From positions 10,119 to 74,118 of the IMG/VR virus record IMGVR_UViG_3300014204_000169: DNA of 64,000 nucleotides. One strand, given 5' to 3'. Every line of letters starts with the position of its first letter. Position 1 is the first letter of the stretch. The notes under the pieces were generated by a model that was not told the DNA's origin, did not search any database, and saw only the letters and a list, made by a program, of their open reading frames with translations. This stretch comes from a virus (Duplodnaviria > Caudoviricetes). Shown piece by piece: positions 6,395-64,000 of the stretch. The position numbers and the translations under genes were made by a program.

Positions 6395-6691
6395 ATGAAT
6401 CTTATAGCTAAAGCACAAGACGTGACCATTGGATATATCGAAATTGACAAGTGGACACTAGATCCTATTACGGAACGCCTCGTCATTTGGTTTCATCTAA
6501 ATGACCATCCGATGCTTCATTATCAATTTGGTCAAGATATTACGGCATCTCTTTGGGTTCTACTCGATGTTGACGCCGGAGTCGATGAAGACAAAGCAAA
6601 AGCTTTGTTAATGGCAGAAAAACCTGCATTTAATTCGGTCGCGCGGGTTGCTTGGAATTTACCGTTTCTTATTGTTGAGCAGGAAAATTGA
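6395..6691 (+). CDS. Hypothetical protein (tail-associated)
   Basis: ATG 6395 with AGAGG RBS; inside tail module. Confidence 0.65.
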   Translation: MNLIAKAQDVTIGYIEIDKWTLDPITERLVIWFHLNDHPMLHYQFGQDITASLWVLLDVDAGVDEDKAKALLMAEKPAFNSVARVAWNLPFLIVEQEN

Positions 6692-6710
6692 CAGAAAATA
6701 GGAGAGCACT

Positions 6711-6965
6711 ATGGTTGAACGCAGAAATCACTGGTTGCAGACACTCTCAATAGTAATCCCGCTAATCATCACGATGATCGGGCTGGCGATAGCATCGGAA
6801 CACAGAATCACTATCGTTGAATCCGGTCTGGATGAGATGAAGACTCAAACAGCCATACTTGCCAGCAATCAAAGAATGGTCATGGAAACACTGGCAAAAA
6901 CCACGGCAATCATGGACATGATGTGCAAGAGACACGAAATAGAGGACACGAAAGGAAAACAATGA
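6711..6965 (+). CDS. Single-TM coiled-coil membrane protein (holin/XhlA-like)
   Basis: AGGAG RBS; N-terminal TM helix then heptad pattern. Confidence 0.55.
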   Translation: MVERRNHWLQTLSIVIPLIITMIGLAIASEHRITIVESGLDEMKTQTAILASNQRMVMETLAKTTAIMDMMCKRHEIEDTKGKQ

Positions 6966-7138
6966 TGCTATCAAAAATATTATTAATCTCCTCTCTTCTA
7001 TTCGGCATGGGTGGATGGTTAGCAACATTGCCGACTTGGAGCGCTGCATTGACTCCGATATCCATGGGCGGGTTATTTATGATTATTGGCTCCATAGTTG
7101 CTGCATGGCTTGGGCAATCTCCAATTAAAGGAAAGTAG
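6962..7138 (+). CDS. Small two-TM holin-like protein
   Basis: ATGATG dual start overlapping upstream stop; two hydrophobic helices and basic C-terminus (PIKGK). Confidence 0.55.
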   Translation: MMLSKILLISSLLFGMGGWLATLPTWSAALTPISMGGLFMIIGSIVAAWLGQSPIKGK

Positions 7139-7143
7139 GATTT

Positions 7144-9060
7144 ATGGCTACTCGCTGGACAACGCTGACATATACCACTGCAAGCATTGCCGGGGGCGCA
7201 AGCCTTGTGGTTAATAGCACAATTGATGCCGTGAATATTGACATTGGCCTGATTGCCGTGCTGCCAAGCATAAATTCCGGCACAACCACGTTCGGGATCT
7301 ACAAAAAAGATACCTGTCTTGATTCGGACATGGTTTACCAGAACACAAAGGCAGGAAACCTCTATGACCCCATCCAGCGAGTAGGAGTAACCGAGCAAAC
7401 AAGAAACGAGTTCCTTGTTGCTAAATATGACGACCTGGATGACTCACTGGAACTACATCAGAAGATCACAAACACGAGCGCGGATGCAAAGACCTATGAC
7501 GTAACGATTGTCTATGTCAAGCATTCAGGAGCTGCTGAAACGAAATCTTTGACGGATTTCGGAGCAGACGCAACTGGAACGGTATCGGCTATTGCGGCAT
7601 TGACGGCGGCAGAGGCAGCCGGGAAACCGCTGATTATTCCTTATGGGACATTTTTGATTGACGCTAACATTACGGTGTCAATTTCCTTAATCTACGAAGG
7701 CGGTCAATTTACCTCCTCCAACGCCTCAACCCTAACCCTCACCGACCCTCAGAGTGGGAGTGATGGGCAGAGGTTTGCGGGGAATCTTGTAGTGGCTGGG
7801 CTCACAAAATCAAACCCAGTTTATTTTGGCGCAGTAGGTAATGGCACAACGGACGATAGCGATAAATTGATTTCCGCATTTTCTTCCGTGGCCACCAATC
7901 ATGGCTTAGTGGAATTCGGGATAGGAATATTTCGGATTACCAAAACCATCCCCACAACTAGTATTGTTCTTCGGGGTATTAACAGAGATAAGAGTCTGAT
8001 CTTTTTGGATTATGATGGCATTGGACTAAGCGTAACAACAGATTCATTATCTCATTTCGAAATGCATGATATCGGCATCGTTGGCGAAACAGCATTTACG
8101 TGGTCGTTGACTACAGCAACAAGCCAGATAGCAGTGCTGATATCTAAGAGCCACAAATACATAATTGATAATTGCCAGTTTTATCATCTCGATAATGCGA
8201 TCAAAGTATATGGCGGTGCGTATTATGGGGTTATCGAAAAAAACCTCTTCCGGACAAATAAGACAAGCATGTACCTGTTAGCGGATACTCCCACAGCAGA
8301 TGCCCCTAATGAAGCCAATATAATTTTCAATCAATTCGATATTTGGCCGGTATCCGTCGGAGGTCCAGGATCGACAATTGGGCTAAAGGTTGAAGGCGTA
8401 GCAGCCGCGGCATCCTCACATATCAAGGTTATTGGAAATGGTTTTGAAAATGTTGCTAATGGCATTAAGCTAATTAATGCATGGGATGGGCAGTATTTAG
8501 ATAACAGGTTTGAAGATGTAACAACATATATGGATGGCGACTCGGGAAGTGGGCGGAATTTCGTCCAGAGCAGCATGTATTTAGATCCATTAAAGTTTGT
8601 ATTTGCAATTGGAGCCCCAAATACAAATACTTTAGTTATTCCTAACAGCAATGGAATCTATGACTGGAAAGGAACTGTCAATGGGGAAACAATCCCTCCT
8701 GTCGTAACTGCGTGGACTCCGGTTGACGCGAGCGGCGCATCGCTTGTATTTACAGCTGCAGTGGGAACTTATTTAAAGACAGGCAAACAAGTGACTGCGT
8801 TTTTTTCGGTGGAGTACCCATCTACAGCTGATGCATCTCAAGCAAAAATAGGGGGATTGCCTTTTGCAGCAGTTGCCGGAGCGACCAATCCGTCTGGGGG
8901 GAATCTAGGCATTAACACCTCGGCCTCTCTTGTGTGTCCAATTGTCGTCGGGGGTGAGTCGTATTTTATAATGTCAGTAATATCCACCAGCAGTGGCGCA
9001 ACAAACGCAAATTTAAGTACTGCTTATTTGCGCGGATTTGTGACATACTTTACAAATTAA
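7144..9060 (+). CDS. Tailspike / depolymerase with pectate-lyase-3-like beta-helix
   Basis: Two entry motifs (SLTDFGADATG; NPVYFGAVGNGTTDDS), Asn/Gly-rich beta-helix pattern, C-terminal WTPVDASG...GTYLKTGKQV fibre-tip domain. Confidence 0.8.
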   Translation: MATRWTTLTYTTASIAGGASLVVNSTIDAVNIDIGLIAVLPSINSGTTTFGIYKKDTCLDSDMVYQNTKAGNLYDPIQRVGVTEQTRNEFLVAKYDDLDDSLELHQKITNTSADAKTYDVTIVYVKHSGAAETKSLTDFGADATGTVSAIAALTAAEAAGKPLIIPYGTFLIDANITVSISLIYEGGQFTSSNASTLTLTDPQSGSDGQRFAGNLVVAGLTKSNPVYFGAVGNGTTDDSDKLISAFSSVATNHGLVEFGIGIFRITKTIPTTSIVLRGINRDKSLIFLDYDGIGLSVTTDSLSHFEMHDIGIVGETAFTWSLTTATSQIAVLISKSHKYIIDNCQFYHLDNAIKVYGGAYYGVIEKNLFRTNKTSMYLLADTPTADAPNEANIIFNQFDIWPVSVGGPGSTIGLKVEGVAAAASSHIKVIGNGFENVANGIKLINAWDGQYLDNRFEDVTTYMDGDSGSGRNFVQSSMYLDPLKFVFAIGAPNTNTLVIPNSNGIYDWKGTVNGETIPPVVTAWTPVDASGASLVFTAAVGTYLKTGKQVTAFFSVEYPSTADASQAKIGGLPFAAVAGATNPSGGNLGINTSASLVCPIVVGGESYFIMSVISTSSGATNANLSTAYLRGFVTYFTN

Positions 9061-9073
9061 AAGAGAGGATTTT

Positions 9074-9205
9074 ATGAAAAGAATTTTGATGACTTCAGTT
9101 TTATGTTTGTTCTACTGCGGATGTTCACTTCAGGCCCAAGAACGTTTTGCTTTCAGCGGTGCCGGATACTATGACGGTGCGCAGGTTAAAGGTGTACTCA
9201 ATTAA
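9074..9205 (+). pseudogene. 43-aa signal-peptide/lipoprotein-like ORF, probably truncated
   Basis: GAGAGG RBS; MKRILMTSVLCLFYCGCSLQAQ... ends where GC content drops back to genome level. Confidence 0.45.
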
Positions 9206-9244
9206 TTATTTTATAGTAAAATAAAGTATTCAAGGAGAATAATC

Positions 9245-9622
9245 ATGTTTTTTCTGTTTAGTTGGTTTTCAAAAATAGGTAAAACTTTTGTAAAGCTATT
9301 CAAATCAAAAGCTGCTCAAAATGTATTAAGTATTATTATTGAGCAAATTCTACCAGAAGCTAAACCCATTGTAGCTTCTATTCAAAATATTATTAATCAC
9401 CCATCTCAAGCAACGATTGCAGATATTATTAATCTATATACTAATTTTAAACAAGAGATTGGTTATATAGAAGATAATGCTCAAGCAAAAGGAAATGCTG
9501 TATTAAATTTAGCGGTTATGTTACTAAAAGATAAACTTGGCCCTAAATATAATACACCATTGCTTGAAGCAGCTATTACTACTGCTTTAGCTTCTTTACG
9601 TGCTGAGTTAGGTTTGAAGTAG
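9245..9622 (+). CDS. Hypothetical protein (last gene of late unit; possible lysis accessory)
   Basis: AAGGAG RBS; amphipathic N-terminus; followed by terminator. Confidence 0.7.
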   Translation: MFFLFSWFSKIGKTFVKLFKSKAAQNVLSIIIEQILPEAKPIVASIQNIINHPSQATIADIINLYTNFKQEIGYIEDNAQAKGNAVLNLAVMLLKDKLGPKYNTPLLEAAITTALASLRAELGLK

Positions 9623-9645
9623 CTTTTATTTACATTCTAAGCAAA

Positions 9646-9686
9646 TAAAAAGAGCACACGGAACTTTGTGTGCTCTTTTCTTTTTG
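9646..9686. terminator. Bidirectional intrinsic terminator at convergence of + and - gene blocks
   Basis: AAAAGAGCACAC-GGAACTTT-GTGTGCTCTTTT 12-bp stem with A-tract before and T-tract after. Confidence 0.9.
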
Positions 9687-9738
9687 AAAGCTCTTAATCG
9701 TTTACAGCAGAGTTATTCAGGCAGTTATTTGATGCCGA

Positions 9739-10134
9739 CTAACACTTTTTGTCACCATGTCGATGTGGCCTAGTAGTATTGTATTCTAATTTTAAATAAA
9801 GTGCATCTATTAGCACTTGTTCAAGTTTATGTTTCCCGATAAAATCACTAATGCGAATTAATTCATCAGCAAGCTCAACACAGAAACCTTCTGGCTTATC
9901 TGGATGTGCTGAGTTTATATTGTAATAGATTTTATCTAGTGGATGTCCTCCACGATATTCTTCCAAAGCTTCAGAAAGTTCTGAATGCATTAAAGCAATT
10001 TTTTCTGGGATATTATGTTTTTTACCATCCCACCAACCATGAGATTTTGCTGTTTTATAAGATTGTTTTACTAACTCTAAAATTGACAAATCATTTCTAT
10101 CAGAACTTCTTAATTTTAATAATTCTTTCTTCAT
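9739..10134 (-). CDS. MazG-like nucleotide pyrophosphohydrolase
   Basis: IALMHSELSEALEEYR ... VELADELIRI ... KLEYNTTR all-alpha NTP-PPase motifs. Confidence 0.8.
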   Translation of the reverse strand: MKKELLKLRSSDRNDLSILELVKQSYKTAKSHGWWDGKKHNIPEKIALMHSELSEALEEYRGGHPLDKIYYNINSAHPDKPEGFCVELADELIRISDFIGKHKLEQVLIDALYLKLEYNTTRPHRHGDKKC

Positions 10135-10472
10135 TTTATCCCCATAATAGGTGTGTAATTTAATTTATTTAACTCTTCAGATATTTTTTGAGCACTTCCT
10201 GCACAAGATATGAGCCCATCAGATAAACTGACAAGTGTCTTGGAGTCATCAATTGGATTGTACCCAATCATCCAAATTTCAGAGCAATTTTCTTTTTTAA
10301 CTCTGAGTCCTCCTTTTACATCAAATAATTCCCATATAATTTTCATCTCTATTCCTTTTATATTGCAAGCTAACAGCCCTACAACACCATAAAGGTAAGA
10401 TCTAAATAATCTGTTGCTTGGCTCTTCTGCATATAGATGCAGATTACAATTCACTGAGTTGAATAGAGACAA
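10131..10472 (-). CDS. Hypothetical protein (true start may be MKIIW)
   Basis: ORF track; stop/start overlap with next gene. Confidence 0.55.
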   Translation of the reverse strand: MSLFNSVNCNLHLYAEEPSNRLFRSYLYGVVGLLACNIKGIEMKIIWELFDVKGGLRVKKENCSEIWMIGYNPIDDSKTLVSLSDGLISCAGSAQKISEELNKLNYTPIMGIK

Positions 10473-10550: not shown

Positions 10551-11351
10551 TCATTTTACATATTTACTAAACTGTTCTGTTGACCAAGTTCTGTATTTTA
10601 ATTCAGTATCTTCTATTCTTTTTAGTAATCCTTGAAATTTATTAAGATCTTTCCCATAAATATGATAGCTGTCTGCTTGGTGACAATATCTCCCTACTCT
10701 AACAGGTTCATTTCTCATTCTACCTATTTCATTTGCAATAAACATTTGTAAATGAACAAAAGCATACATATTCATAAATGCTGCTTGATAGGCATCGTTA
10801 GAACGCATCAAAACATTCATATCAAGTTCCCACTTAGGAGAACCTTCTTTATTAACTTGAGTCATTCTGCACCATATTCTTTGTAAGCATGGTGGATCAG
10901 AAGAATATAAATCATATTCAGGAACCCAAGTAATTGCTTGTGCTCTTCTTGAGTATGGAACTCTAGCAAGAATTTTACACATTTCATGGATTTGATCTTT
11001 TGGAACAAATCTAGCTGGGTTATATCTGAATAGTCTTGAATGATAAGTATAGTAAAGTCTTCCAGTATTCTTAGATTCCAGAAAAGAAACTATCTCATTA
11101 TCCTTACTGCCATGAAGAACTTCATTAACATAGTTTACTAAATTTTGAGGTAGCCCAGGAAAGCAGCGATGTACTCTTGGCTCATCAAGAGGATTAGTAA
11201 CCTCAATCATCATAGTGCAATCCTTGCTTGGGGGATCTTCAGGTTTGTCATATTCAGTTTTAATATCACAACCGTGCTTGTGTAATATAATTAATGAATT
11301 CTCCCAAGCTTCTGGAATAGTTTTTCCTCTTACTGATAATACTGGGATCAT
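10551..11351 (-). CDS. thyA: Thymidylate synthase, ThyA family (short archaeal-like type)
   Basis: SRRA, DPPCLQ (catalytic Cys), MRSNDA...FMN, DSYHIY motifs; start MIPVL at 11351 with AAGGTGG RBS. Confidence 0.9.
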   Translation of the reverse strand: MIPVLSVRGKTIPEAWENSLIILHKHGCDIKTEYDKPEDPPSKDCTMMIEVTNPLDEPRVHRCFPGLPQNLVNYVNEVLHGSKDNEIVSFLESKNTGRLYYTYHSRLFRYNPARFVPKDQIHEMCKILARVPYSRRAQAITWVPEYDLYSSDPPCLQRIWCRMTQVNKEGSPKWELDMNVLMRSNDAYQAAFMNMYAFVHLQMFIANEIGRMRNEPVRVGRYCHQADSYHIYGKDLNKFQGLLKRIEDTELKYRTWSTEQFSKYVK

Positions 11352-11611
11352 AAAGAATCCACCTTTCCTAACATTCTTAAAATACAAAGATTTACTTCAT
11401 CTTGTAAAACTCTAGCGCTTTCAATATTTTTAAATGTTATTACTAAATCTTGTTCTTTTGGAATAAAAGTACCACTATTTTCTTCTTTTGGTACAGCAGC
11501 ACCAATGGGGTAAGATTTTTCACTGTGTTCAAAAATAATACTTTCATCATTATTTTCAATTTCTTTTCCTACAGTTATTAAATATTTTCCATCCCCTAAA
11601 ATTACGTGCAT
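11348..11611 (-). CDS. Hypothetical protein
   Basis: ORF track; coupled to thyA. Confidence 0.65.
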   Translation of the reverse strand: MHVILGDGKYLITVGKEIENNDESIIFEHSEKSYPIGAAVPKEENSGTFIPKEQDLVITFKNIESARVLQDEVNLCILRMLGKVDSL

Positions 11612-11740: not shown

Positions 11741-11971
11741 TCATTCATTATATTTTACCGGATAGTAACAATCAGGCCAAGAAATAGATTCATTTGGTAT
11801 GATATCATTTAAAATTGCTGACCCAATAAAATAAGTATGATCTACACAAGCTTTGATTGCTTTTCTTTTTGTTGTAAAAACCCCTTGAAATTCCCAAGCA
11901 ACTACTTTTGATTTTTTATCAAAACCTTTATTTTGCCCAACAATCCATAATTTAATTTTCTTTGACATCAC
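11741..11971 (-). CDS. Hypothetical protein
   Basis: ORF track; AGGA RBS. Confidence 0.65.
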   Translation of the reverse strand: MMSKKIKLWIVGQNKGFDKKSKVVAWEFQGVFTTKRKAIKACVDHTYFIGSAILNDIIPNESISWPDCYYPVKYNE

Positions 11972-12563
11972 TAATTCCTTTTTTAATTGTTACATTAAAT
12001 ACTTTATCTGCACATTCAGCTAATTCTGTACTGTGCGTAACCACAATAACTTGCAATGAAAGTTTTTTACTAATTTCAGATAACATAGCACTAGCTAAAT
12101 TCATTCTTACAGGATCTAACCCAGGAAAAGGTTCATCTAATAATAAAACATTATTAGTTCTTGGATTTTGTAATACCCATGAAACAACTCTTAATGCAAA
12201 TGCAGCTATATGCACTGTTCCTCCACCAGAAGAATCCATTGGCTCATCTATCTCTTGCCCCTTACGGGAAAATAACAAATCACACTCACTCTTATTCCTA
12301 CGCTGAATAAACCTTGCCATGAATTCATAAGGGTCATCATATACAGAAGATAAAGCCATGCTTACTAAATCAGATATTTTGAATTCAAGGGACTGTTGTG
12401 TGCGTAGACCTACAAGCTTTACGCACTCTAAGGCTTTTTCTAAATTATGTGATTTACTAACTAGTTTAGCATTTTCCAGAGTGACGGATTCAAGGAGATT
12501 ATTAAGAGTCAGTTTTTGGCCTTTCCGTTGCTCTAACCTGTTTCGTAATTCTTGAATAGTCAT
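11952..12563 (-). CDS. sbcC: SbcC/Rad50 (gp46-like) C-terminal half: coiled coil, ABC signature, Walker B
   Basis: DSSGGG signature, VLLLDEPF Walker B/D-loop, IVVTHS H-loop; no Walker A. Confidence 0.85.
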   Translation of the reverse strand: MTIQELRNRLEQRKGQKLTLNNLLESVTLENAKLVSKSHNLEKALECVKLVGLRTQQSLEFKISDLVSMALSSVYDDPYEFMARFIQRRNKSECDLLFSRKGQEIDEPMDSSGGGTVHIAAFALRVVSWVLQNPRTNNVLLLDEPFPGLDPVRMNLASAMLSEISKKLSLQVIVVTHSTELAECADKVFNVTIKKGISDVKEN

Positions 12564-12752
12564 TTATGGCTCAAATACATAAAGTTTATAATCATCAGAT
12601 TTTACAATAAAATAATCTTCTGCTTGATCACCTCCATATTTTGTATTTAAAGCATCACAAATAGTATTAGCATAATAAAGAGGAACATTTTCTACAACTG
12701 TTCGTTCTGATATATGCTCTCTTGCAAAATTATCTGTGCAAATTATTTTCAT
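12564..12752 (-). CDS. Conserved-looking small phage protein
   Basis: ORF track; MKIICTDNFARE. Confidence 0.65.
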   Translation of the reverse strand: MKIICTDNFAREHISERTVVENVPLYYANTICDALNTKYGGDQAEDYFIVKSDDYKLYVFEP

Positions 12753-12909
12753 TAGCTTTCCCTTTTTTAATAATGAAGTATCCTAATCCAATAAATGCTA
12801 TTACCCCACCACGGATAACCCAACCATTATAAATAATACCAATACCTAATATTATATTTACAAAAGCACAGTAAGGTGTTATGCGTTCAATTAACGTAAT
12901 CCATTTCAT
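12730..12909 (-). CDS. Small membrane protein
   Basis: Read by eye: MKWITLIER...LGIGIIYIMVGLSVVGVIAFIGLGYFIIKK, one long TM helix. Confidence 0.55.
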   Translation of the reverse strand: MKWITLIERITPYCAFVNIILGIGIIYNGWVIRGGVIAFIGLGYFIIKKGKANENNLHR

Positions 12910-13148
12910 TAGTCTTCCCCTAATTCAGATTCAATCTTTTCTGAAAGTTTAGTAATTTTTTTAGTAATATCTTCCAATTCAGTTTCAAGAGATTCAATCT
13001 TTTCTTGTGCCTCAGACACATCCTTACACTTGAAATCCATTTTTAGTGTATTTAGTAAAGCCGTCTTCTGGCCTTGCAACTGCTGCTCCTGATTCTTAGC
13101 AGAATCAATTTTGTCCTTCAGATCAAATAATTGTTTTTCGGTTAGCAT
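12909..13148 (-). CDS. Small coiled-coil protein
   Basis: Heptad pattern throughout; lies between the two SbcC halves. Confidence 0.7.
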   Translation of the reverse strand: MLTEKQLFDLKDKIDSAKNQEQQLQGQKTALLNTLKMDFKCKDVSEAQEKIESLETELEDITKKITKLSEKIESELGED

Positions 13149-13440
13149 ATTTATACTTCCTTAATTCATAATCAGTAAAATCTCTTGTACTCCAATCAGG
13201 GCAATGCTTTTGCCAATTTTTAAATTCTATATCTCCTGAATGATAAAATACATCGGGTCTTTTTTCACAAGCTAAATGAGTTTTATCAGTAACAATAAAA
13301 GTTAAATATTTACAACTATCACATCTAGCAGCAATATTACTAAATTTGCATGTGTTATTTTCATGATTAGTTGCTGCTGATTTGCTTTGTAAAATTTTAT
13401 TACAAAATTTACAAGCATAAGCTTCAACTTTATTTGGCAT
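13123..13440 (-). CDS. C2HC/C2H2-like zinc-finger protein (paralog A)
   Basis: YACKFCNKILQSKSAATNHENNTC plus CDSC. Confidence 0.7.
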   Translation of the reverse strand: MPNKVEAYACKFCNKILQSKSAATNHENNTCKFSNIAARCDSCKYLTFIVTDKTHLACEKRPDVFYHSGDIEFKNWQKHCPDWSTRDFTDYELRKYKYANRKTII

Positions 13441-13705
13441 TACCTACTATTCTCCATTCAAAGAACGCGCTAATATGAGCATCATCCACCATACTTTCAG
13501 GATGCACATCCTCATACCCTTCGGGCCTTTTTACTGCAATTAATATTTCATCTGATTTTGGTTCAAATTGTTTTAACCGTTTAATTTCTTTCTGTTCCCA
13601 ATCTGTCCAAATAGAATCACAGTCCTCACAATGAAATCCTGTGTGTTTTCTTTTTGGTGTTTTTTCACTTGTTACATTTTTACTTTTGCAAAAAATGCAC
13701 TTCAT
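13430..13705 (-). CDS. Zinc-ribbon hypothetical protein
   Basis: CIFC ... CEDC. Confidence 0.65.
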   Translation of the reverse strand: MKCIFCKSKNVTSEKTPKRKHTGFHCEDCDSIWTDWEQKEIKRLKQFEPKSDEILIAVKRPEGYEDVHPESMVDDAHISAFFEWRIVGNAK

Positions 13706-14586
13706 AATCTCTCCAATGCCTTATATATATAGTTTACTACAGATTTCTTTAAAGGATTTTGTGACAAAAATTGCTTTAGATTATCTTGAAAATTTACATC
13801 CGTAATAGATTCATCCGTAAGTTTTTCAATGAATGCTTGAATACGGGAATCCCTTGCTTCATCTTTTTCTATGTGTTCACGAGTTATTACTAAATTTCCT
13901 GGTTCTATTGGAAGAAACACTTGTTCAATTTTATTTGTAGAAGCTTCCCAAAGGAACACACACGGCTTATGATCTATCTGATCTGATTTCTGTCTTGTCA
14001 TAGAACCAGGATTTATTAAATATCTTCCCTGATACTCTTCAACAAAAGTCTGATGGTTGTCAGACGTAATAATCAACGGAAATTGAGGGTATTTTTTTAG
14101 TAATACTCTTGCTGATGATTCCTTACACCCAGGAAAAGGTAGTTTTTTTGAATATGTTAATATATGCCAAACTAAAATAGATTTATGAATTTCAGGAATA
14201 TAAAACCCTTTATCTGGAGTTTGACCCCAACTACAATCAGGTAAAACTTCTAACTTACCGGCTTCTTTTAATGTATTAATTCCAGATTTATAAGCTAAAT
14301 CTAAGTTGTGGTTTGGTAAATCATGGTTTCCATACACGGTGTAAAATTGGTTGGGTAAATGTTTTATTGTTTCTGTAAGTAAGTAAGGACTAGGCTTCCA
14401 GTTTTCAAAAAGATCCCCACCACATAAAACAAGACAGTCATATTGTTTTTGTAGTTGCCAAATGAAATCTAATTTTCTCCATTGAGCATCTAAGAATGAA
14501 TCTGTTCTACAGATTGGTTGATCCTCACGTAAGTGAATATCCCCGCAAATAATAATTGTAGGTTTGAAAGATTGTTTATTTTTCAT
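13702..14586 (-). CDS. sbcD: SbcD/Mre11 (gp47-like) metallophosphoesterase nuclease
   Basis: GDIH, GGDLF, GNHD, SDNH, INPGS motifs. Confidence 0.9.
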   Translation of the reverse strand: MKNKQSFKPTIIICGDIHLREDQPICRTDSFLDAQWRKLDFIWQLQKQYDCLVLCGGDLFENWKPSPYLLTETIKHLPNQFYTVYGNHDLPNHNLDLAYKSGINTLKEAGKLEVLPDCSWGQTPDKGFYIPEIHKSILVWHILTYSKKLPFPGCKESSARVLLKKYPQFPLIITSDNHQTFVEEYQGRYLINPGSMTRQKSDQIDHKPCVFLWEASTNKIEQVFLPIEPGNLVITREHIEKDEARDSRIQAFIEKLTDESITDVNFQDNLKQFLSQNPLKKSVVNYIYKALERL

Positions 14587-14872
14587 AAAAATTTACATTT
14601 ATCTCCCAAGAAGAACAATGTTTTCTCCAAATTTTATTATGTATTGGTGTAAGAGAATCCATATTGAGATAAAGACTATTCGTATTTATTAATTGTATTC
14701 CTTTATCACAAGATATTTCTTCTCTAAAAAGTATTAAGTTTTTACAACCTTTACAACGTCTTGCGATTGGACTTTTGTTACAATGATTATTTTCATGATT
14801 TTTAGCATCAGACAATCTACTAAAAATTCTTTTACAATAATCACAGGCATGAGCTTCAATTTTGTGTGTCAT
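14576..14872 (-). CDS. C2HC/C2H2-like zinc-finger protein (paralog B)
   Basis: [24 protein letters not shown] plus CKGC; start MTHK with GAAG RBS. Confidence 0.7.
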
Positions 14873-15906
14873 TTCTTCTTCCCGCACAAATAACAATAAT
14901 TTGGAAAACCTTTATCAAACTCTTTTTGTAACATTATAATCTTATTTTTACTTTTAGTAATCAACTCTTCTGTCATTTTTATTGCGCTGACATGTTCTTC
15001 TAATCTATCTTTTTTATTTTTTAGTAATTTTAAATCTTTATACCAAACTAATGCTTGATCTACAGTATCTTCCAGTTTAGTAAGCTTTTGAAGCTCTTTC
15101 TGATTCACAGTAATAGATTTTAGCTGTTTTACTGTCTTTATAAGGCTATTTTTCTGCTCTGTAATCGTTTCTAAGGCTTTATAAAGTCCCAAACAAGTAT
15201 TTACACCATCTTTATGCTTTAACTTGTTCTGGACCTTCTCAATGAGTGAATCCAGCACAGAAGATCTTGTTATTAGATTAGTAATAACTTTTACTTTAGT
15301 TTCTATCTCTTGTTTTCTTTGATCTAACTTTTCCAGTTCACTTACTTGATACTCAAGTGATTCAAGATTACTATACTTTTTAAGATCCTTAGTATAATTA
15401 GTAATTTGATTATTAGTAACCTCAATTTCCTGATTTGTTTTTCTGATCCATGATTGGATATTTTTAGTAGCATAATCAATATCATCAATATGTGCTATTT
15501 CATTAAAATGCCTTGCTACTTCTCCAGGGGAATCAGAAAACAGAAATACTTTATCATGTTGCCTTTGAATATTAATCTCAGACATATTAAGGGCTTTACT
15601 AACTTCATCAGGAACATCCGACCGGACAGCTTCTAGTAATTTGCCATTAAGGAAATACCCATTCTGCTTTCCACGTATACGAGTGATCTTTTGATCATTA
15701 GTAAATATAGTAGCTTTAGTTGTACCACCCCACCATGAACGAAAAGATTCTCCAGAAGGACGATTAAACAAAACCCATCTGATTGCTCTTAGTAAACTAG
15801 ATTTTCCCGCATCGGAATTTCCAATAATGCAGTTCACCGATGGGGAGAATTCCAGTTCAGAATGCTTATGTGATTGAAAGTTTTTTACTATTAATTTATT
15901 TATCAT
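14869..15906 (-). CDS. sbcC: SbcC/Rad50 (gp46-like) N-terminal half: Walker A, Q-loop, coiled coil, zinc hook
   Basis: [14 protein letters not shown] Walker A, IQRQHD Q-loop, terminal CYLCG hook. Confidence 0.9.
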
Positions 15907-16036
15907 TTTTAGTAATTTTCTTTACTAAACTAATAACATTAGATGCAAGACCATTATGTTCTTTTTTACAATGAAGTTCCCAAGATTTTTTATCTTGTTT
16001 GAAATCTTTCAAACAAAAAGGACATTTAAATCCCAT
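15896..16036 (-). CDS. 46-aa classical C2H2 zinc-finger protein
   Basis: Read by eye: [27 protein letters not shown]. Confidence 0.6.
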
Positions 16037-16039
16037 AAT

Positions 16040-16240
16040 TTATAACCCTGCAAGCAAATCATTAGTAATATATTCAAGAAAAGCTGCACTAAGTTCTTTT
16101 ATTAATCTTTCTTTATTTGCAGTATAATAATCTGGATAAACGCCACCAAACTTATCTACATTTAATCTTATTAGTTTATTAATTTTTTTTGAGTCAACAG
16201 TTATAACAACTTCTTTTTTATCTTTATTAACTTCTGCCAT
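16040..16240 (-). CDS. Hypothetical protein
   Basis: ORF track; GAGGAG RBS. Confidence 0.7.
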   Translation of the reverse strand: MAEVNKDKKEVVITVDSKKINKLIRLNVDKFGGVYPDYYTANKERLIKELSAAFLEYITNDLLAGL

Positions 16241-16370
16241 ATTTTCTCCTCAATATAAATGTACTAATTGTTCTAACCCATCTAACCGTTTACTAAAAGT
16301 TTCAAATGTTATTTTTTCTTCTTCATATTCATTTTGTAATTTTACTAAACTTTTATGTGCTTCTTCTAAT

Positions 16371-16835
16371 CTAGCCATTCGGGGGTTTTGTTCGCAACAT
16401 CTTCTTAGGCTTTTTTCCATCTCCATGTACTTGCGTGTTTTGTGTATTGGTATTTTTTAACTTTCTTCGATCTTGAATATGTTGACCCACCATTTCAAAA
16501 AAATTATTAGCATCCATAACCACAACAGGTACTTGATGTGATGAACGTACAACAAGAAGCCAATTAGTATTTGGTTGTTCATTAGTAATTGCTTGTTTAA
16601 TCCAAGCAGGGATAGACCACGTTTCTTGACGCTTACATTCAATTGAAAAAGGCGCAAGCTTTCTTGCTTTACCTCTTAAAATTACGTCTACGCCTGAACT
16701 GCCCATTGGACGTGAACTTATTAAACTTTCATCATCTGGTCCCCAAGGAATACCTGTAATTTCACTGATTTTTTGGCAGCAAAATTGCTGTAGAAGACGG
16801 CCTTTTTGTTTTCTCGCTGCTACTGAAATAGTCAT
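16371..16835 (-). CDS. Holliday junction resolvase (PD-(D/E)xK, Hjc-like)
   Basis: RKQKGRLLQ, SRPMGSSGVDV, FSIECKRQE. Confidence 0.8.
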   Translation of the reverse strand: MTISVAARKQKGRLLQQFCCQKISEITGIPWGPDDESLISSRPMGSSGVDVILRGKARKLAPFSIECKRQETWSIPAWIKQAITNEQPNTNWLLVVRSSHQVPVVVMDANNFFEMVGQHIQDRRKLKNTNTQNTQVHGDGKKPKKMLRTKPPNG

Positions 16836-17028
16836 TTCTCACCATTTGTAATAAGTTTATTAATTCTGGTAAATCCGCTTTATTCATTACTAAACTACCA
16901 TGTGATCTTAATGCATTTTGTTCAATGATACAGAACTTATTATTCTTTTGAATAGACAATCCTTTTTCTGTATGAGATGCATAGTAAGTAAAATTACCGT
17001 AATCATCTTCTTTAACAATTTTAATCAT
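16762..17028 (-). CDS. Hypothetical protein
   Basis: ORF track; coupled to recA stop. Confidence 0.55.
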   Translation of the reverse strand: MIKIVKEDDYGNFTYYASHTEKGLSIQKNNKFCIIEQNALRSHGSLVMNKADLPELINLLQMVRNDYFSSSEKTKRPSSTAILLPKNQ

Positions 17029-18116
17029 CGTATCTTCTTCTTTCTACTCTTATGAAAGGAAGACTCAATAGCTTCCCATGTATCTATAACTTCTTCTTTT
17101 AGTTCATTTTCTAAATTAGAATCCTCAATCATAGTACATGCTTTGTCTAAATCATTACTAAGTTTTTCTCCACCAATAGTATAAAATTTATCAGTAGAAT
17201 TACTTTTAATAAATTGAAGATTTTGTCTCAAATTGTCAATGCCATATGAAAATACTATTGGTATTACAGCAGTTCTATGTGGAACATCAATACTGCTTTT
17301 TGCAACAGTAATAGTTGTTTCCACACCAATAACTCTTGATATCTTTTTCCCACCATTTATGGTTTTTTCTTTTTTAATCTTAGTTGGGTTAGAACATTGT
17401 AAACGCAAAGAAGCGTAAAAAGGTATGCCCATACCACCAGACGATTTATATTTAGCTTCATATAATCCCCCACCAACATTTTCCCTAATCTGATTTGAAC
17501 ATACTAATAGTAAATTTCGTTCTTTAATAATTCGACAAGTTTTCCTAAGTTCTTCTGAAAACTCTTTGGCTCTACGCATCCCATATTTATCTTCACCATC
17601 CATTTCCATATTAGTGGAAAGTGCAGCTAAAGAATCTGTTAAAATTCCTGTAATTGTACTTGTATCTTCTGGAGCTATTTTACGAATATGTTGAAATACT
17701 TCTGTTACGGTATTGGGTGTAAAGTATTGATCTTCTTTTATATGAAAATCAAATACTTTTGCAAACTGTTTTCCCAATCGCGCCTCTGGGTCAAAAAAGT
17801 AAGTTTCACCACCTTGACGCTCAATGGCTCCAGCTAATTCACAAAGAAGGATTGTTTTTCCTGCTCCGCTAGGTCCAAAGATTTCTACTAATATTCCTCC
17901 AGGTATACCACCACCTCTAACAGCAGTTCCACTTATGGCAAGATCCAACAAAGTTGATCCTGTAGAAATTACTTTACCAAAATCAAATTCTTTTTCTTCT
18001 TCCACTAAGTCTGTGTTTTGGTGTGTGTGTGTTCTCTTCTTTAGTTTCTTCTCTCGTTGTTCTACTAATGTTGGGGTTTCCTCTTCTGACTCTGAGTGAT
18101 GTTTTGTTCGTAACAT
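17025..18116 (-). CDS. recA: RecA/UvsX-like recombinase
   Basis: EIFGPSGAGKT Walker A, DPEARL, DSLAAL, NQIR, GGMGIPFYASLR; start placed at MLRTK (18116). Confidence 0.92.
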   Translation of the reverse strand: MLRTKHHSESEEETPTLVEQREKKLKKRTHTHQNTDLVEEEKEFDFGKVISTGSTLLDLAISGTAVRGGGIPGGILVEIFGPSGAGKTILLCELAGAIERQGGETYFFDPEARLGKQFAKVFDFHIKEDQYFTPNTVTEVFQHIRKIAPEDTSTITGILTDSLAALSTNMEMDGEDKYGMRRAKEFSEELRKTCRIIKERNLLLVCSNQIRENVGGGLYEAKYKSSGGMGIPFYASLRLQCSNPTKIKKEKTINGGKKISRVIGVETTITVAKSSIDVPHRTAVIPIVFSYGIDNLRQNLQFIKSNSTDKFYTIGGEKLSNDLDKACTMIEDSNLENELKEEVIDTWEAIESSFHKSRKKKIR

Positions 18117-18459
18117 ATTTTTCCTTATGGAGGGATTCGATATCCGCACATACTTGTTCAATGTATCCGGTTAGTATATTTTTCTTCTTTAGGCTTATTC
18201 GTACTTCATCAAGAAATGCGTGTAGTATATCTACAGAATTATTTTCCTTAAAAATCTTATCTCCAAATTTAATAAATTCTTCTGCAATCTTTCTTATAGC
18301 AGTCATTTCAGAATGTGACTTTACATAATCCGTAACCATTTTTCTTAACACACCAGATTTATCTGTACCAAGAGAAATGGTTATTAAACTAAAGGCTTCT
18401 GCAATTTCTGTAGGAAGATATGCGCCTACTAGTTTTTCCTGTATAGCTATTAGTGACAT
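17983..18459 (-). CDS. Ribbon-helix-helix-like DNA-binding protein
   Basis: N-terminal LVGAYLPTEIAEAF...KSGVLRKMVTDYV pattern. Confidence 0.5.
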   Translation of the reverse strand: MSLIAIQEKLVGAYLPTEIAEAFSLITISLGTDKSGVLRKMVTDYVKSHSEMTAIRKIAEEFIKFGDKIFKENNSVDILHAFLDEVRISLKKKNILTGYIEQVCADIESLHKEKYVTNKTSLRVRRGNPNISRTTREETKEENTHTPKHRLSGRRKRI

Positions 18460-59919: not shown

Positions 59920-60411
59920 ATGGCTGTTAAGAAAACAATTAAGTTAAAACGGTATAACGAAATTGAGATTGAGCGTCTTGCAGGAGCGGCAATTACACCT
60001 GGCATGATTCTTCAACTTGGTTCGGGCAATACTGTAGTGGCTCATGCAACTGCTGGTGGAAACATCCTTGGAAATATGGTCGCTCTTGAAGATGAGCTTC
60101 AGGGTGGGACTATTGATACGGCTTATGATGCTGCTGATGTAGTAAAAATTGGTATATTTAGAACAGGTGATGTGGTTTATGCAATTCTGACTGATGGTGT
60201 TAGCGTATCCATTGGGGATGCTTTGGAATCTGCTGGCAATGGTATGCTTACTAAACACACAGCAGATATTGAATCTCCTGGTGTTTTGTCTGTTTACCCT
60301 AAACAAATATTTGGTTTCGCTCAGGAAGCAGTAGACACATCTGACTCTTCTGGTGGGGAATCGTCTGGTACGTTAGAGTTTGCTAAACGTATTGCTGTCA
60401 TCGTTGCTTAA
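59920..60411 (+). CDS. Capsid decoration / head cement protein
   Basis: Between protease and MCP; ITPG...LESAGNGML pattern. Confidence 0.7.
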   Translation: MAVKKTIKLKRYNEIEIERLAGAAITPGMILQLGSGNTVVAHATAGGNILGNMVALEDELQGGTIDTAYDAADVVKIGIFRTGDVVYAILTDGVSVSIGDALESAGNGMLTKHTADIESPGVLSVYPKQIFGFAQEAVDTSDSSGGESSGTLEFAKRIAVIVA

Positions 60412-60429
60412 TGAAAGGAATTTATAAAT

Positions 60430-61512
60430 ATGAAGGTTAACACTGATTTTATTGGAAATAATCAAGCTCAAGGAGCTATTGCAACAATGTTGCTTAATAG
60501 TAAAAAGCTTGATGTTGGGAGACTTAGACCTTTTGAATATGATGGGCGTTCCTATGTTTCTATTTATAAAGGTCATGGGGATATCAAAGATGAAAAATTT
60601 TATGATGTTATCCAGGTAAATGCTAATAGCACTCTTAGACGTGAAGAGTGGATGCAGCTTGATAAAGCCTTGCTGGACATCTCTCGTAGTCGTCTTGGTG
60701 GTGTTGAAGATCTTGTTAGTAAAGGACTGACTTATAATCTTGGAAATGCCATGGCTACTACAGTTCTTGAGTACCATGATATTTCTGATTCGATGGAAGC
60801 TGAACTTAGTATGGACGGTGTTACCCGTGGTAATGCAGATCGCCCTGAATATGGTTCTACCTTCTTGCCTATCCCGATTATTCATGTTGATTTTGATATT
60901 AATGCTCGTGCATTAGCTGCTAGTCGTAATATGGGAAATCCGCTTGACACTACGATGGTTGAACAAGCTGGACGTAAGGTTAAAGAGAAATTGGAAGCCA
61001 TGTTGTTTACGGATACTTCTTATGCCGCTTTTGGTGGCACAATTTATAGTTATTTGAATGCTCCTAAACGGAACACAGTAACTAGTTCTACTGTTTGGGA
61101 TGATAGTGCAACTGGAGCACAGATTCTTTCTGATGTTCAGAAAATGAAGAAAGCTTCTATTGCTGCAAAGCATTATGGTCCATGGCAGCTTTACATTCCA
61201 ACTGAATATGAAACACGAATAGATGAGGATTATTCCACTTTGTATCCTGGTGTAACTATTCGTGATCGTATTATGAAACTCAACAACATTATGGGTATTA
61301 AAATTGTTGACACCCTTACTGATGGTAAAGTAGTGATGGTTCAAATGACCAGCGATGTTGTTCGTTTAGTAAATGGTATGGCTATGCAAACCGTTCAGTG
61401 GAAAACTGAAGGTGATATGGTTATTAAATTTAAAGTCATGGCAATTCAGGTTCCTCAGATTCGTAATGATCATGATGGAAATTCTGGATTGACTGTTTTG
61501 ACTTTGACTTAG
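60430..61512 (+). CDS. Major capsid protein (HK97 fold, linocin/encapsulin-like)
   Basis: REEWMQLDKA, PIPIIHVDF.INAR.LAASR; position in head operon. Confidence 0.9.
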   Translation: MKVNTDFIGNNQAQGAIATMLLNSKKLDVGRLRPFEYDGRSYVSIYKGHGDIKDEKFYDVIQVNANSTLRREEWMQLDKALLDISRSRLGGVEDLVSKGLTYNLGNAMATTVLEYHDISDSMEAELSMDGVTRGNADRPEYGSTFLPIPIIHVDFDINARALAASRNMGNPLDTTMVEQAGRKVKEKLEAMLFTDTSYAAFGGTIYSYLNAPKRNTVTSSTVWDDSATGAQILSDVQKMKKASIAAKHYGPWQLYIPTEYETRIDEDYSTLYPGVTIRDRIMKLNNIMGIKIVDTLTDGKVVMVQMTSDVVRLVNGMAMQTVQWKTEGDMVIKFKVMAIQVPQIRNDHDGNSGLTVLTLT

Positions 61513-61558
61513 TTTAATAATAAGGAACTAATCAAGTTCCCAAATTAGGAGCATTATT

Positions 61559-61987
61559 ATGAAACGGAAATCAGCCCGTAGTGAAAAAGAAGTTGTGGAA
61601 GAAGTAGTAGAGATTGAAAAAGATGAAGTTGTACAACCTAAAGTTGTTGTAAAAAGTGTAAAAAGTAAAGATTCTCATGATGGTAAAATTAGATATAAAA
61701 ATAATGGGGGTCTTTTTTACCCTTTGAGTGGACCACCAGTAAAATCTGGTGAAATATTTTGGTCTAGGCCAGGGGATATTCCTTCATCTGTAAAAGATAT
61801 TATTAAAGCTTTAGATCCTATAAAAGAAACCCCTCCTCTAGTGGTAGCAAATCCAGAATATAAAATAACCCCTTGCAATTATGAAGAGGATAAATTTAAT
61901 ATTGTTGATTGCCGTGGAAAAATATTAAATGAAACTGCTTTAGCTGAAGATGCGGCAAAAGTAATGTTGGCCCGTCTTCTGGAGTAA
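61559..61987 (+). CDS. Hypothetical head-associated protein
   Basis: ORF track; AGGAG RBS; follows MCP. Confidence 0.7.
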   Translation: MKRKSARSEKEVVEEVVEIEKDEVVQPKVVVKSVKSKDSHDGKIRYKNNGGLFYPLSGPPVKSGEIFWSRPGDIPSSVKDIIKALDPIKETPPLVVANPEYKITPCNYEEDKFNIVDCRGKILNETALAEDAAKVMLARLLE

Positions 61988-61991
61988 TATT

Positions 61992-62732
61992 ATGCTTTGG
62001 ACTGCTCCAGAAATTTGGAAAGATGGTGAGTGTTTTATTATTGGTGGTGGTCCAAGCATCCCTCAACAATTTAATATCCCAAATGATATTGTTTCTCAGG
62101 TAATGGCAGGAAAACTTCCTGCCTCTACCTATTCCCCTTATTTATCTACAATACATAATAAACATATTATTGGTGTAAATAATGCATATACTTTGGGGAG
62201 TTGGGTAGATGTTTGTTTTTTTGGAGATAATTCTTGGTACTTAGTACATAGATTAGGTATTGCCAAATTTGCAGGGTTAAAAGTTACTTGTTGTAATAGG
62301 TTTGCATATAGATCTATAAAAGATATGGAAGGTATTAAATATCTTGCTAAAGATAAAGAATGCACACAGGGGATTAGTAAAAATAAATCTGCTGTAGCTT
62401 GGAATAATAATAGTGGCGCTGCTGCTATAAGTCTTGCTATTCATTTTGGAGTAAAAAGAATTATATTACTTGGCTTTGATATGACTCTTAGTAAAAATCA
62501 AATGAGTCATTGGTTTGGGACACATAATAGAGAAAAAAAGGTAGTACCCCCATTTTTCCGCCATTTGCGTGGATTTCCTATCATCGCAAAACATGCAAAA
62601 GAGCGTGGGGTAGAAATATTAAACTGTAGTTCAACCAGTGCTATAAAAGACTTCCCAATAATGACAGTTGAAGAGGCACTAAATGATCCCAACAAATCAA
62701 CAATTACTAAATCTGAAGCAATCATTAGTTAA
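61992..62732 (+). CDS. CstII/Maf/MptE-like (DUF115-type) nucleotide-sugar transferase candidate 1
   Basis: FIIGGGPS, IIGVNNAY, VCFFGD, NSGAAAISLAIHFGVKRIILLGFDM. Confidence 0.65.
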   Translation: MLWTAPEIWKDGECFIIGGGPSIPQQFNIPNDIVSQVMAGKLPASTYSPYLSTIHNKHIIGVNNAYTLGSWVDVCFFGDNSWYLVHRLGIAKFAGLKVTCCNRFAYRSIKDMEGIKYLAKDKECTQGISKNKSAVAWNNNSGAAAISLAIHFGVKRIILLGFDMTLSKNQMSHWFGTHNREKKVVPPFFRHLRGFPIIAKHAKERGVEILNCSSTSAIKDFPIMTVEEALNDPNKSTITKSEAIIS

Positions 62733-63348
62733 TAATAAGTTACCAAAGGTATTTGAAGGACAAACCGTATTTATTTATGGTGGAGGACCATCTCTACCTA
62801 ATATAGTAAAAGGGAGGAATATTAATCACCCAATAATAGGCGTAAATCATGCAATATTGCTTGGGGTTAGGATTGATATTTGTTTCTTTGGTGATTCCCG
62901 ATTTTATTGGATTATGAAGGATGATTTTATTAAATATGATATTATTAAAATAAGTTGTGATCGTAGGTCTGGAAAAACAACAGATCTACCAATCCCTGAT
63001 TCTGATACTTCAATTATTAAAATACCCTATAGTAATGGGCATGGGGTTCATATAGATAAAAATAAAATTAACTTTAATTCCTCTTCTGGTGGAGCAGCTA
63101 CAGATTTAGCAATTCATCTTGGGGCATCAAGAATAATTTTAGTTGGGTTTGATATGCGTTGGGTCGATGGAGAATCTAATTGGCATCCACATGCTTTTAG
63201 AAAAACAAATAAACCTTATACTAATTTTATTGTTCCTTTTGATTCCCTTGCAAGACAAGCAAAATTCCGTAATGTTGAAATACTAAATGCAACACCAAAT
63301 AGTTTACTCCCTTATTTTAAGTTCACTAATTTTGAGGAATACTTATGA
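62683..63348 (+). CDS. CstII/Maf/MptE-like (DUF115-type) nucleotide-sugar transferase candidate 2
   Basis: FIYGGGPS, IIGVNHA, ICFFGD, SSGGAATDLAIHLGASRIILVGFDM. Confidence 0.65.
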   Translation: MIPTNQQLLNLKQSLVNNKLPKVFEGQTVFIYGGGPSLPNIVKGRNINHPIIGVNHAILLGVRIDICFFGDSRFYWIMKDDFIKYDIIKISCDRRSGKTTDLPIPDSDTSIIKIPYSNGHGVHIDKNKINFNSSSGGAATDLAIHLGASRIILVGFDMRWVDGESNWHPHAFRKTNKPYTNFIVPFDSLARQAKFRNVEILNATPNSLLPYFKFTNFEEYL

Positions 63349-64000
63349 ACGTAATGACAGAAATAGAAACAATTAAGTATATTTCTGATAATAAATGTTC
63401 TGTTGCCAGGTATGGTGATGGGGAATTTAAACTTTGTATTGGGGCTAGTGCTAAGTCTCAAAAAGCCGATAGGAATATGGCGGAACAAATGAGATTTTTA
63501 TTAAGAGATACCAATAATAAAAATTTACTTGTTTGTATTCCAAGAATTTATGAACCAAGAAGTGATTGGCCTACTCAAGAAAAATGGAACTTTTGGAAAC
63601 AGTTTGCACAACAGTCAAGGTACGTTTCTTTACTTAATACTAGGAAAACCTATGGATCTTCATTTATAACCCGTCCTGATTCATCTGGGCAGAGTTCTGT
63701 GACCTTTTATGAGTCAATTAAAGCTCTTTGGAGTGGAAAAAATGTTTTATTAATAAAAGGTGAAGGAACTGGTTTTGATAAAGATAAATCTATTTTTAGT
63801 ACAGCAAGACGATATGAAACTTTATTAGGTCCAGAAAGAGATTCTTTTTCTATGATTGATAGTTTAGTACATAAAGCAATTTATAGAACTAATGAGGACA
63901 CAGTTATAGTTATCTCTTTAGGACCAACTGCAACATTACTTGCTGAACGGCTATCTAAATTTAGACAAACTTTGGATCTTGGGCATCTTGGGATGTTTTA
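63345..64000 (+). CDS. GT-D fold glycosyltransferase (DUF1792-like); runs off window end
   Basis: Translated by eye (not in track): SVARYGDGEF, LLVCIP, SSFITRPD, LWSGKNVLLIKGE, ISLGPTATLLA, LDLGH. Confidence 0.85.
   Translation, partial: MNVMTEIETIKYISDNKCSVARYGDGEFKLCIGASAKSQKADRNMAEQMRFLLRDTNNKNLLVCIPRIYEPRSDWPTQEKWNFWKQFAQQSRYVSLLNTRKTYGSSFITRPDSSGQSSVTFYESIKALWSGKNVLLIKGEGTGFDKDKSIFSTARRYETLLGPERDSFSMIDSLVHKAIYRTNEDTVIVISLGPTATLLAERLSKFRQTLDLGHLGMF

Follow-up and report, generated by a model that had tools for sequence, protein, structure and literature searches.

To our knowledge, glycosylation of phage particles has so far been shown only for a few mycobacteriophages. In those of cluster O, a phage-encoded methyltransferase and phage-encoded glycosyltransferases modify the proteins of the capsid and the tail tube, with the glycans located at the C-termini, as the work is relayed in two other articles (Freeman 2023, via PMC11600133, PMC12619734). 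Chloroviruses glycosylate their capsid protein with virus-encoded enzymes (PMC5408694), and the transferase-rich hypervariable regions of pelagimyophages and cyanomyophages, which lie among tail-fibre genes, have been read as loci for the modification of the host O-antigen (PMC7029224). Here we describe a cassette of ten enzyme genes, about 7.1 kb in length, that lies behind the major capsid gene and ahead of the head-tail adaptor gene in an uncultured tailed phage (Duplodnaviria; Caudoviricetes; IMG/VR record IMGVR_UViG_3300014204_000169). The stretch analysed, called the window below, comprises 64,000 nucleotides of that record (positions 10,119 to 74,118). An earlier sequence-only reading of the window had proposed a virion glycosylation system for the three transferase genes visible behind the capsid gene; it overlooked that the island is hypervariable, this cassette being one version of it, and that the usual last gene of the island is one for a predicted sulfotransferase. 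While the idea of a sugar-coated virion is known from mycobacteriophages, the island described here occurs in hundreds of uncultured phages and combines a different enzyme set with a sulfotransferase.

All genes of the cassette are co-oriented on the + strand and overlap or nearly abut. The upstream border of the island is the major capsid gene, which is followed by a gene for a 142-residue protein and then by paralog A (61992-62732), a Maf/CstII-like single-domain transferase of 246 residues that matches phrog_4603 (E 2e-35). Next come paralog B (62683-63348; 221 residues; phrog_4603, E 1e-24), a second Maf/CstII-like transferase, and a GT-D (DUF1792) protein of 236 residues (PF08759, E 2.9e-38), whose first 218 codons occupy 63345-64000 of the window. 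The window corresponds to bases 10119-74118 of the 74118-bp record (G000:C1), and bases 1-10200 of the record were fetched separately as L003. The record carries a terminal repeat of 123 bp (window 63878-64000 = G000:C1:1-123) which sits inside the GT-D gene, and its 'ends' are therefore not physical: they reflect an overlap in the assembly of a genome that is circular or circularly permuted. The GT-D frame continues through this junction and ends at L003:181. Seven further enzyme genes precede the head-tail adaptor: an FkbM methyltransferase (L003:168-770), a class I methyltransferase (L003:739-1314), a GT2 glycosyltransferase (L003:1301-2038), two more methyltransferases (L003:2041-2619 and L003:2589-3236), a tandem GT8-like transferase of 465 residues (L003:3236-4633; phrog_1962) and a TPST-like (tyrosylprotein sulfotransferase-like) sulfotransferase of 203 residues (L003:4630-5241). 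The adaptor gene itself (L003:5238-5636) forms the downstream border and is followed by genes for neck proteins, tail tube, a chaperone and the tape measure.

Several predictions of the sequence-only reading can be judged from this arrangement. The open reading frames (ORFs) behind the capsid gene are all on the + strand, as it had described, and the junctions between them (a 4-nt gap, a 50-nt overlap and an ATGA overlap) are consistent with the translational coupling that it had assumed. More genes, transferases included, were expected past the window edge, and the seven additional enzyme genes bear this out. Late expression likewise fits, as the cassette lies inside the late structural operon and has no convincing internal promoter or terminator: promoter-like sites in the block show no excess over shuffled controls, and no strong terminator was found within it. 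In composition the island of this phage is native. Its GC content at third codon positions is 0.16-0.22 against 0.16-0.26 in the flanking genes, and the palindrome TTASTAA, which occurs 234 times in the 74 kb record (3.2 per kb), has a density of 2.5 per kb in the island (61992 to L003:5241) and of 1.4-1.7 per kb in the flanking structural genes.

Relatives of paralog A are abundant, with 956 database proteins at E <= 1e-5 and more than 513 IMG/VR loci encoding one. We fetched 80 related loci, 45 of which contain both island borders; 36 of these were clustered after nine near-duplicates had been dropped. The gene order is the same in 80 of 80: decoration protein, capsid protein, in 55 of them the 142-residue protein, then paralog A and a variable stretch, which in loci long enough downstream leads into the sulfotransferase, adaptor, neck and tail-tube genes. 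The terminal sulfotransferase is present in 43 of the 45 loci with both borders. Sampling through the capsid protein, which is independent of the island, gave a similar picture: of 61 loci that were long enough downstream, 58 have paralog A behind the capsid gene. In loci with both borders the length of the island is 0.7-9.6 kb, apart from one (L014) in which it is reduced to 0 kb and paralog A abuts the adaptor gene. The 36 non-duplicate loci hold 235 ORFs, all on the + strand at a coding density of about 100%, and these fall into 84 sequence clusters, most of them seen once. Pfam matches of the cluster representatives include several GT2 families, a GT9, a DegT aminotransferase, an NDP-hexose (nucleoside diphosphate-hexose) C-methyltransferase, NAD epimerases/dehydratases (in nine loci), FkbM, TylF and class I methyltransferases, a B12-radical SAM enzyme, a PfkB kinase, short-chain and zinc dehydrogenases, transketolase-like proteins, a cupin and a Sulfotransfer_2. 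Adenosine 5'-phosphosulfate (APS) kinase is encoded within the island of six relatives and adjoins the terminal sulfotransferase in most of them; this genome has none above cut-off. The GT-D protein, paralog B, the FkbM enzyme and one other methyltransferase of this phage have no detectable counterpart in the 36 clustered loci. No GT-D was found among the 80 related loci, and a second Maf-like copy of the paralog B type occurs in only two of the 80.

The variability of the island is best seen in near-identical phages. Loci L062 and L078 have identical capsid proteins and flanking DNA that is 93-94% identical on both sides, but a non-homologous stretch, 2.0 kb in one and 2.5 kb in the other, sets in some 18 nt past the paralog A stop codon and stops before a shared GT2 gene and the sulfotransferase gene; the Jaccard index of island gene sharing between the two is 0.17. 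Loci L034 and L035 show a similar break. The island is thus a hypervariable sugar-tailoring locus that is swapped cleanly between near-identical phages, and since its middle is exchanged by recombination, close relatives would be expected to display different glycans. As a separate observation, one singleton island ORF of the relatives (alignment A6) matches the homing-endonuclease motifs NUMOD3 and GIY-YIG, and a mobile endonuclease inside the island could promote cassette exchange.

Among cultured phages no match to the region was obtained by blastn. The closest cultured capsid relative, Brevundimonas phage MaInes (36% capsid identity), has the same head gene order with no island after the capsid gene. 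Smaller cassettes do occur elsewhere. In Pseudomonas phage D3 a phrog_4603 gene (orf7) is preceded by a small post-capsid gene and followed by the adaptor gene, and a methyltransferase is encoded further along; the neck module of PAJU2 contains a phrog_4603 gene, a hypothetical gene and a gene for a methyltransferase; and in Tetraselmis viridis virus S20 the stretch from the capsid-region genes to the head-closure gene holds two genes of phrog_4603 along with one each for a GT-D, a methyltransferase and a further transferase. The sulfotransferase found no match in cultured phages by tblastn and is absent by the same search from D3, PAJU2 and Tetraselmis viridis virus S20.

Paralogs A and B are 32% identical (E 1e-30), and the motifs GGGPS, IIGVN and SG.AA..LA.H.G..RIIL.GFD noticed earlier are present in both translations; their columns are invariant or nearly so in an alignment of 42 family members, in which His173, His178 and His191, candidate counterparts of the catalytic His188 of CstII, are nearly invariant too. 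Sequence and profile searches of the PDB with this family returned nothing meaningful, and the fold search alone was informative. A model of paralog A, built with 41 homologs (predicted local distance difference test score, pLDDT, 92), was compared with PDB representatives and matched the Maf flagellin glycosyltransferase first (5mu5_A; Z 14.7, root-mean-square deviation 4.1, 192 residues), 3.7 Z units over the next-best structure. In Foldseek, CstII (E 1.5e-5) and Maf rank above the pterin kinase HPPK. The fold comparison called for in the sequence-only reading thus agrees with the parallel to Maf and CstII that it had drawn from the motifs, paralog A being best modelled as a transferase of this type. 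The two phage proteins cover the central domain of Maf only (residues 261-515 of a 632-residue chain), and the flanking domains are absent. The donor is another matter. The earlier suggestion of acidic sugars activated by cytidine monophosphate (CMP) is unsupported and stems from the fold analogy only, as neither this genome nor five complete relatives contain a CMP-sugar synthetase (PF02348); genes for nonulosonic-acid synthesis or CMP activation are likewise missing from the same six genomes. The host may possibly supply the donor sugar.

The assignment of the third gene as a GT-D fold protein is firm: it scores 132.3 bits against PF08759 (cut-off 27) and aligns to the DUF1792 structures 4phr/4pfx at E 1.8e-30, with its GDGE metal motif on their GDGE. 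The tandem transferase belongs to a family with an invariant DxD motif whose members have one, two, three or more domain copies per protein or a methyltransferase fusion; its weak best matches (E 0.005-0.03) are glycogenin and the Skp1 galactosyltransferase, both GT8 enzymes, and one member of the family matches Glyco_transf_8. The last gene of the island is, judging from motifs and fold, predicted to encode a TPST-like sulfotransferase dependent on 3'-phosphoadenosine 5'-phosphosulfate (PAPS). Across the 38 sequences of the family R12, G14, K83, R108 and S116 are invariant and align to the cofactor and catalytic positions of TPST (5'-phosphosulfate loop, catalytic Lys, 3'-phosphate motif), and the family profile matches tyrosylprotein sulfotransferases nearly over the full length (E 2e-7), while the protein of this phage alone scores 26.5 bits against a Sulfotransfer_3 Pfam cut-off of 27. 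The structural model (pLDDT 92.6) is closest to TPST2 (Z 15.5), TPST1 (Z 15.4) and a tick TPST, all within Z 15.3-15.5 (Foldseek E 2e-6), and an olefin-synthase sulfotransferase (Z 13.6) and mycobacterial Stf1 and Stf9 (Z 12) rank lower. A tyrosine in the decoration-protein motif LGY.KR was considered as the target of this enzyme and rejected, as many loci with the sulfotransferase lack that residue.

Two virion proteins have segments that would suit as acceptors. The decoration protein contains the Ser-rich stretch pointed out earlier (DTSDSSGGESSGT), which lies about 13 residues ahead of the C-terminus in a segment that is conserved across the clade as a loop of the type D-(L/T)-S-G-S-S-G-x-E-S-S-G. 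At least three serines in a 24-residue tail window were counted in 81 of 90 distinct decoration proteins from loci with paralog A; over all 93 distinct proteins, the loop window holds a mean of 4.1 serines in paralog-A loci versus 0, 1 and 1 in three loci without it. A second candidate acceptor, missed by the earlier reading, is the Ser/Gly-rich C-terminal tail of the tail tube (type N-S-G-S-G-P-S). An SG(S/T)G-type tail is found in 36 of 36 distinct tail-tube proteins from paralog-A loci and in none of three from loci without paralog A (Mann-Whitney p 0.003, relatedness ignored). One of these three loci is L114 (IMGVR_UViG_3300028602_000139), where capsid gene, a small ORF, sulfotransferase and adaptor follow one another with no transferase gene. 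Its decoration protein has 128 residues and lacks the Ser-rich loop, and its tail tube stops directly after the last strand, whereas its nearest capsid relatives (75-80% identity) carry paralog A. A search with the loop-less decoration protein of L114 returned only five loci, and a capsid search re-centred on L114 found the same three contigs without a Maf-like gene.

Taken together, we consider it probable that the cassette serves a late, cytoplasmic O-glycosylation of the phage's own virion proteins, giving a coat that may also be methylated and sulfated. This reading draws on the gene content, the folds, the operon position, the clean swap junctions of the hypervariable island, the solubility of the enzymes and the co-variation of the acceptor-like segments; we infer the acceptor, the sequence in which the enzymes act, the sugars donated and the purpose of such a coat, which might for instance be shielding, adhesion or an altered host range. 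The enzymes would be produced together with the structural proteins in the cytoplasm, where paralog A, the conserved Maf-like enzyme and proposed initiating protein O-glycosyltransferase, would attach an initial sugar to Ser or Thr residues in segments that are flexible and exposed. Candidates for these are the decoration protein's Ser-rich loop, close to the C-terminus, and the C-terminal Ser/Gly-rich tail of the tail tube. In this phage the glycan may then be extended by the second Maf-like enzyme, GT-D, the GT2 protein and the tandem GT8-like transferase, and capped by the four S-adenosylmethionine-dependent methyltransferases and the PAPS-dependent TPST-like sulfotransferase. Virion proteins are favoured as the target because the island is part of the late capsid-to-neck operon, because the characterised enzymes most closely related to the Maf-like, GT-D, GT8-like and TPST-like ones act on proteins, and because the acceptor-like segments co-vary with the Maf-like gene. 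An exported polysaccharide is disfavoured by the lack of multi-pass membrane proteins: each of 247 island proteins has fewer than three strongly hydrophobic segments.

A more specific proposal, which we make tentatively and hold to be on the unlikely side, is that the two conserved end genes encode independent enzymes that each act directly on virion proteins: the Maf-like enzyme would start a strain-variable, methylated glycan on the decoration and tail-tube proteins, and the TPST-like enzyme would sulfate a virion protein itself and not the glycan alone. Islands with a single end exist, L114 keeping the sulfotransferase only and other relatives the Maf-like gene only, and L114, where the sulfotransferase is the sole enzyme between the capsid and adaptor genes (L114:5357-6076), suggests that it can act without a phage-built glycan. 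Were this so, a very large clade of environmental phages would possess a recombining 'serotype' locus for its own particle, and with it the first case of virion sulfation.

Virion glycosylation has to be weighed against three other explanations, and a number of observations count against it. The virion-protein target is inferred. The co-variation of the acceptor segments is suggestive, resting on three contigs that represent perhaps two independent events. Vertical co-inheritance of paralog A with the capsid gene is unsupported: pairwise divergence of the two shows a Spearman correlation of 0.02 (adaptor 0.37 and tail tube 0.21 are likewise low), and the module is therefore mosaic rather than strictly co-inherited with the capsid. 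The sole Pfam match of the paralogs is PF01973 'MptE-like', just below its cut-off of 34.6 (paralog A 28.6 bits, E 1.5e-6; paralog B 34.2 bits, E 2.7e-8), and in the modelled fold of paralog A the CstII-type and MptE matches are tied, with Cst-I at Z 11.0 and the archaeal MptE HPPK 8sd5 at Z 10.4 over 157 residues; SteA, mammalian sialyltransferases and thiamin pyrophosphokinases (Z 6-8) also appear among the lower-ranking matches. The paralogs could then be MptE-type pyrophosphokinases or other nucleotide-binding enzymes, the cassette a metabolic set and its place beside the capsid gene functionally meaningless. Sequence matches to HPPK point the same way faintly (paralog B E 0.005, family profile E 0.17). 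PF01973, however, is the former DUF115, a family to which the Maf proteins belong, and the lead and coverage of the Maf match, the lower Foldseek rank of HPPK, the transferase rather than folate or pterin genes around the paralogs, and the recurrence of the post-capsid slot in the unrelated cultured phages D3, PAJU2 and Tetraselmis viridis virus S20 make this explanation very unlikely. The kinase assignment, which the sequence-only reading had named as what would overturn it, is accordingly disfavoured by the leading Maf match, although the fold alone, given the HPPK score, does not decide.

The enzymes might instead act on the host, modifying an envelope glycan (O-antigen, capsule or exopolysaccharide) during infection by way of lipid-linked intermediates or sugar-nucleotide pools of the host, which would block superinfection or the loss of progeny on debris. 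Hypervariable regions rich in transferase genes are usually interpreted in this way in marine myophages (PMC7029224), and the island content (GT2, epimerase/dehydratase, DegT, C- and O-methyltransferases, GT9) resembles an O-antigen cluster. O-antigen transferases are moreover themselves soluble or peripheral and build on lipid carriers with the help of host flippases, so that the missing membrane proteins are compatible with an envelope target; this too tells against the virion. On the other hand, a priming transferase, flippase, polymerase and transporter are absent among the 247 island proteins, the single Polysacc_synt_C match (E 2e-8; one of 51 singleton island proteins) not being a full-length transporter. 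No integrase was found in this phage, which disfavours lysogenic conversion, and the genes are part of the late capsid-to-neck operon and not near early or lysogeny genes. As the closest characterised relatives of the Maf-like, TPST-like and GT-D enzymes modify proteins and the acceptor-like segments of two virion proteins follow the Maf-like gene, we judge the host envelope to be an unlikely target. The phage DNA seems a very unlikely one. Phage transferases that glycosylate 5-hydroxymethylcytosine in DNA are well known (10.1101/2023.12.21.572611), and by analogy the transferases of the cassette could glycosylate hydroxymethylated pyrimidines and thereby protect against restriction. The genome does encode a divergent thymidylate-synthase-family (ThyA-like) protein that could feed such a modification and so stands against a virion target (10551-11387, -; 278 residues, 44.5 bits): its catalytic Cys (PCL) is kept, Asn occupies the position that specifies deoxyuridine monophosphate (dUMP), and the nearest solved relative is a CMP 5-hydroxymethylase (E 0.0098). 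It may thus act as a dUMP hydroxymethylase, which would hint at modified DNA. Its gene, however, lies about 20 kb from the island in a block on the other strand, while the island is embedded in structural genes; six of six relatives with islands of 3-9.6 kb and a completeness of 90% or more have no PF00303 gene; and DNA substrates are not known for Maf-like, GT-D or TPST-like enzymes.

The surroundings of the cassette are of a standard type. The head module occupies 54.5-64 kb on the + strand and comprises small and large terminase, portal (PF06381), a protease/scaffold fusion, the decoration protein (59920-60411; 163 residues; phrog_766, E 1e-8) and an HK97-type major capsid protein of 360 residues (60430-61512; DUF6260 E 2.5e-24, Linocin_M18, Major_capside; phrog_771, phrog_264). 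The 142-residue ORF behind it (61559-61987, +) has no Pfam or PHROG match, and a protein atlas returned viral hypothetical proteins only. A small protein is found between the capsid gene and the first Maf-like gene in three unrelated phages, namely D3 (orf6.5, L004:4753-5040), Tetraselmis viridis virus S20 (L087:5277-5843) and the present one (61559-61987). All three have a short folded part and a low-complexity charged or Ser/Pro-rich stretch, and they could be partners or acceptors of the island enzymes. In the early region (11952-18161, -) an SbcCD-like pair is encoded, made up of an SMC/RecN-like ATPase split into two ORFs and a calcineurin-type phosphoesterase, along with a PD-(D/E)XK nuclease and a RecA homolog.

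The locus resembles a bacterial O-antigen locus in that its borders are conserved and near-identical genomes exchange what lies between them. If the product is on the virion, the phages would have recombining surface 'glycotypes' with a bearing on adsorption, aggregation, attachment to particles, grazing and antibody recognition, and sulfation by a phage would become directly testable. Pseudomonas phages D3 and PAJU2 and Tetraselmis viridis virus S20, with a smaller cassette in the same slot, offer cultured test beds. In the literature we found no description of Maf-like or sulfotransferase genes in phage structural operons, and the comparison is best made with systems that share one or other part of the island. 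Mycobacteriophage virion glycosylation (Che8, Corndog of cluster O and others), as far as the accounts in PMC11600133 and PMC12619734 describe it, resembles the system proposed here in the use of phage glycosyltransferases and an O-methyltransferase, in the C-terminal segments concerned and in late cytoplasmic action. The island described here differs in that it starts with a Maf/CstII-like transferase, joined by GT-D, and is usually closed by a TPST-like sulfotransferase, in its exact slot between the capsid and adaptor genes, and in its hypervariable content that is swapped between near-identical phages; it belongs to low-GC phage genomes whose hosts are environmental bacteria, and its chemistry is predicted from its genes. 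Virus-borne sugar-tailoring genes that vary between close relatives are a feature shared with the pelagimyophage and cyanomyophage regions (PMC7029224). The chloroviruses, in contrast, are giant viruses of eukaryotes with unrelated enzymes (PMC5408694).

The bacterial counterparts are instructive for the individual enzymes. The flagellin O-glycosylation islands of Campylobacter, Helicobacter, Aeromonas and Magnetospirillum, which contain Maf (DUF115; 5mu5), share with the phage island the adjoining variable sugar-tailoring genes and a soluble enzyme whose expected substrate is Ser or Thr of a protein that assembles itself into a filament or shell and is modified beforehand; it is the central Maf domain that paralog A matches best (Z 14.7). 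Unlike Maf with its approximately 630 residues, the phage proteins (221-246 residues) consist of that domain only, are not accompanied by nonulosonic-acid or CMP-activation genes, and would have a virion protein instead of flagellin as their target. The TPST1/2 enzymes (3ap3, 5wri, 8w5z) and other members of Sulfotransfer_3 are the closest solved relatives of the last island gene by profile and fold; the phage enzyme differs from TPST1/2 in being soluble and 203 residues long, and its substrate could be a sugar or a protein. Finally, GT-D is homologous (E 1.8e-30, shared GDGE) to dGT1 of Streptococcus parasanguinis (4phr, 4pfx), an enzyme that lengthens the O-glycan on a serine-rich repeat adhesin. 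The phage protein is a stand-alone enzyme of 236 residues in a structural operon, rare in the clade and present in Tetraselmis viridis virus S20, but by analogy its role may be likened to that of dGT1, a cytoplasmic second-step transferase acting on a Ser-rich protein.

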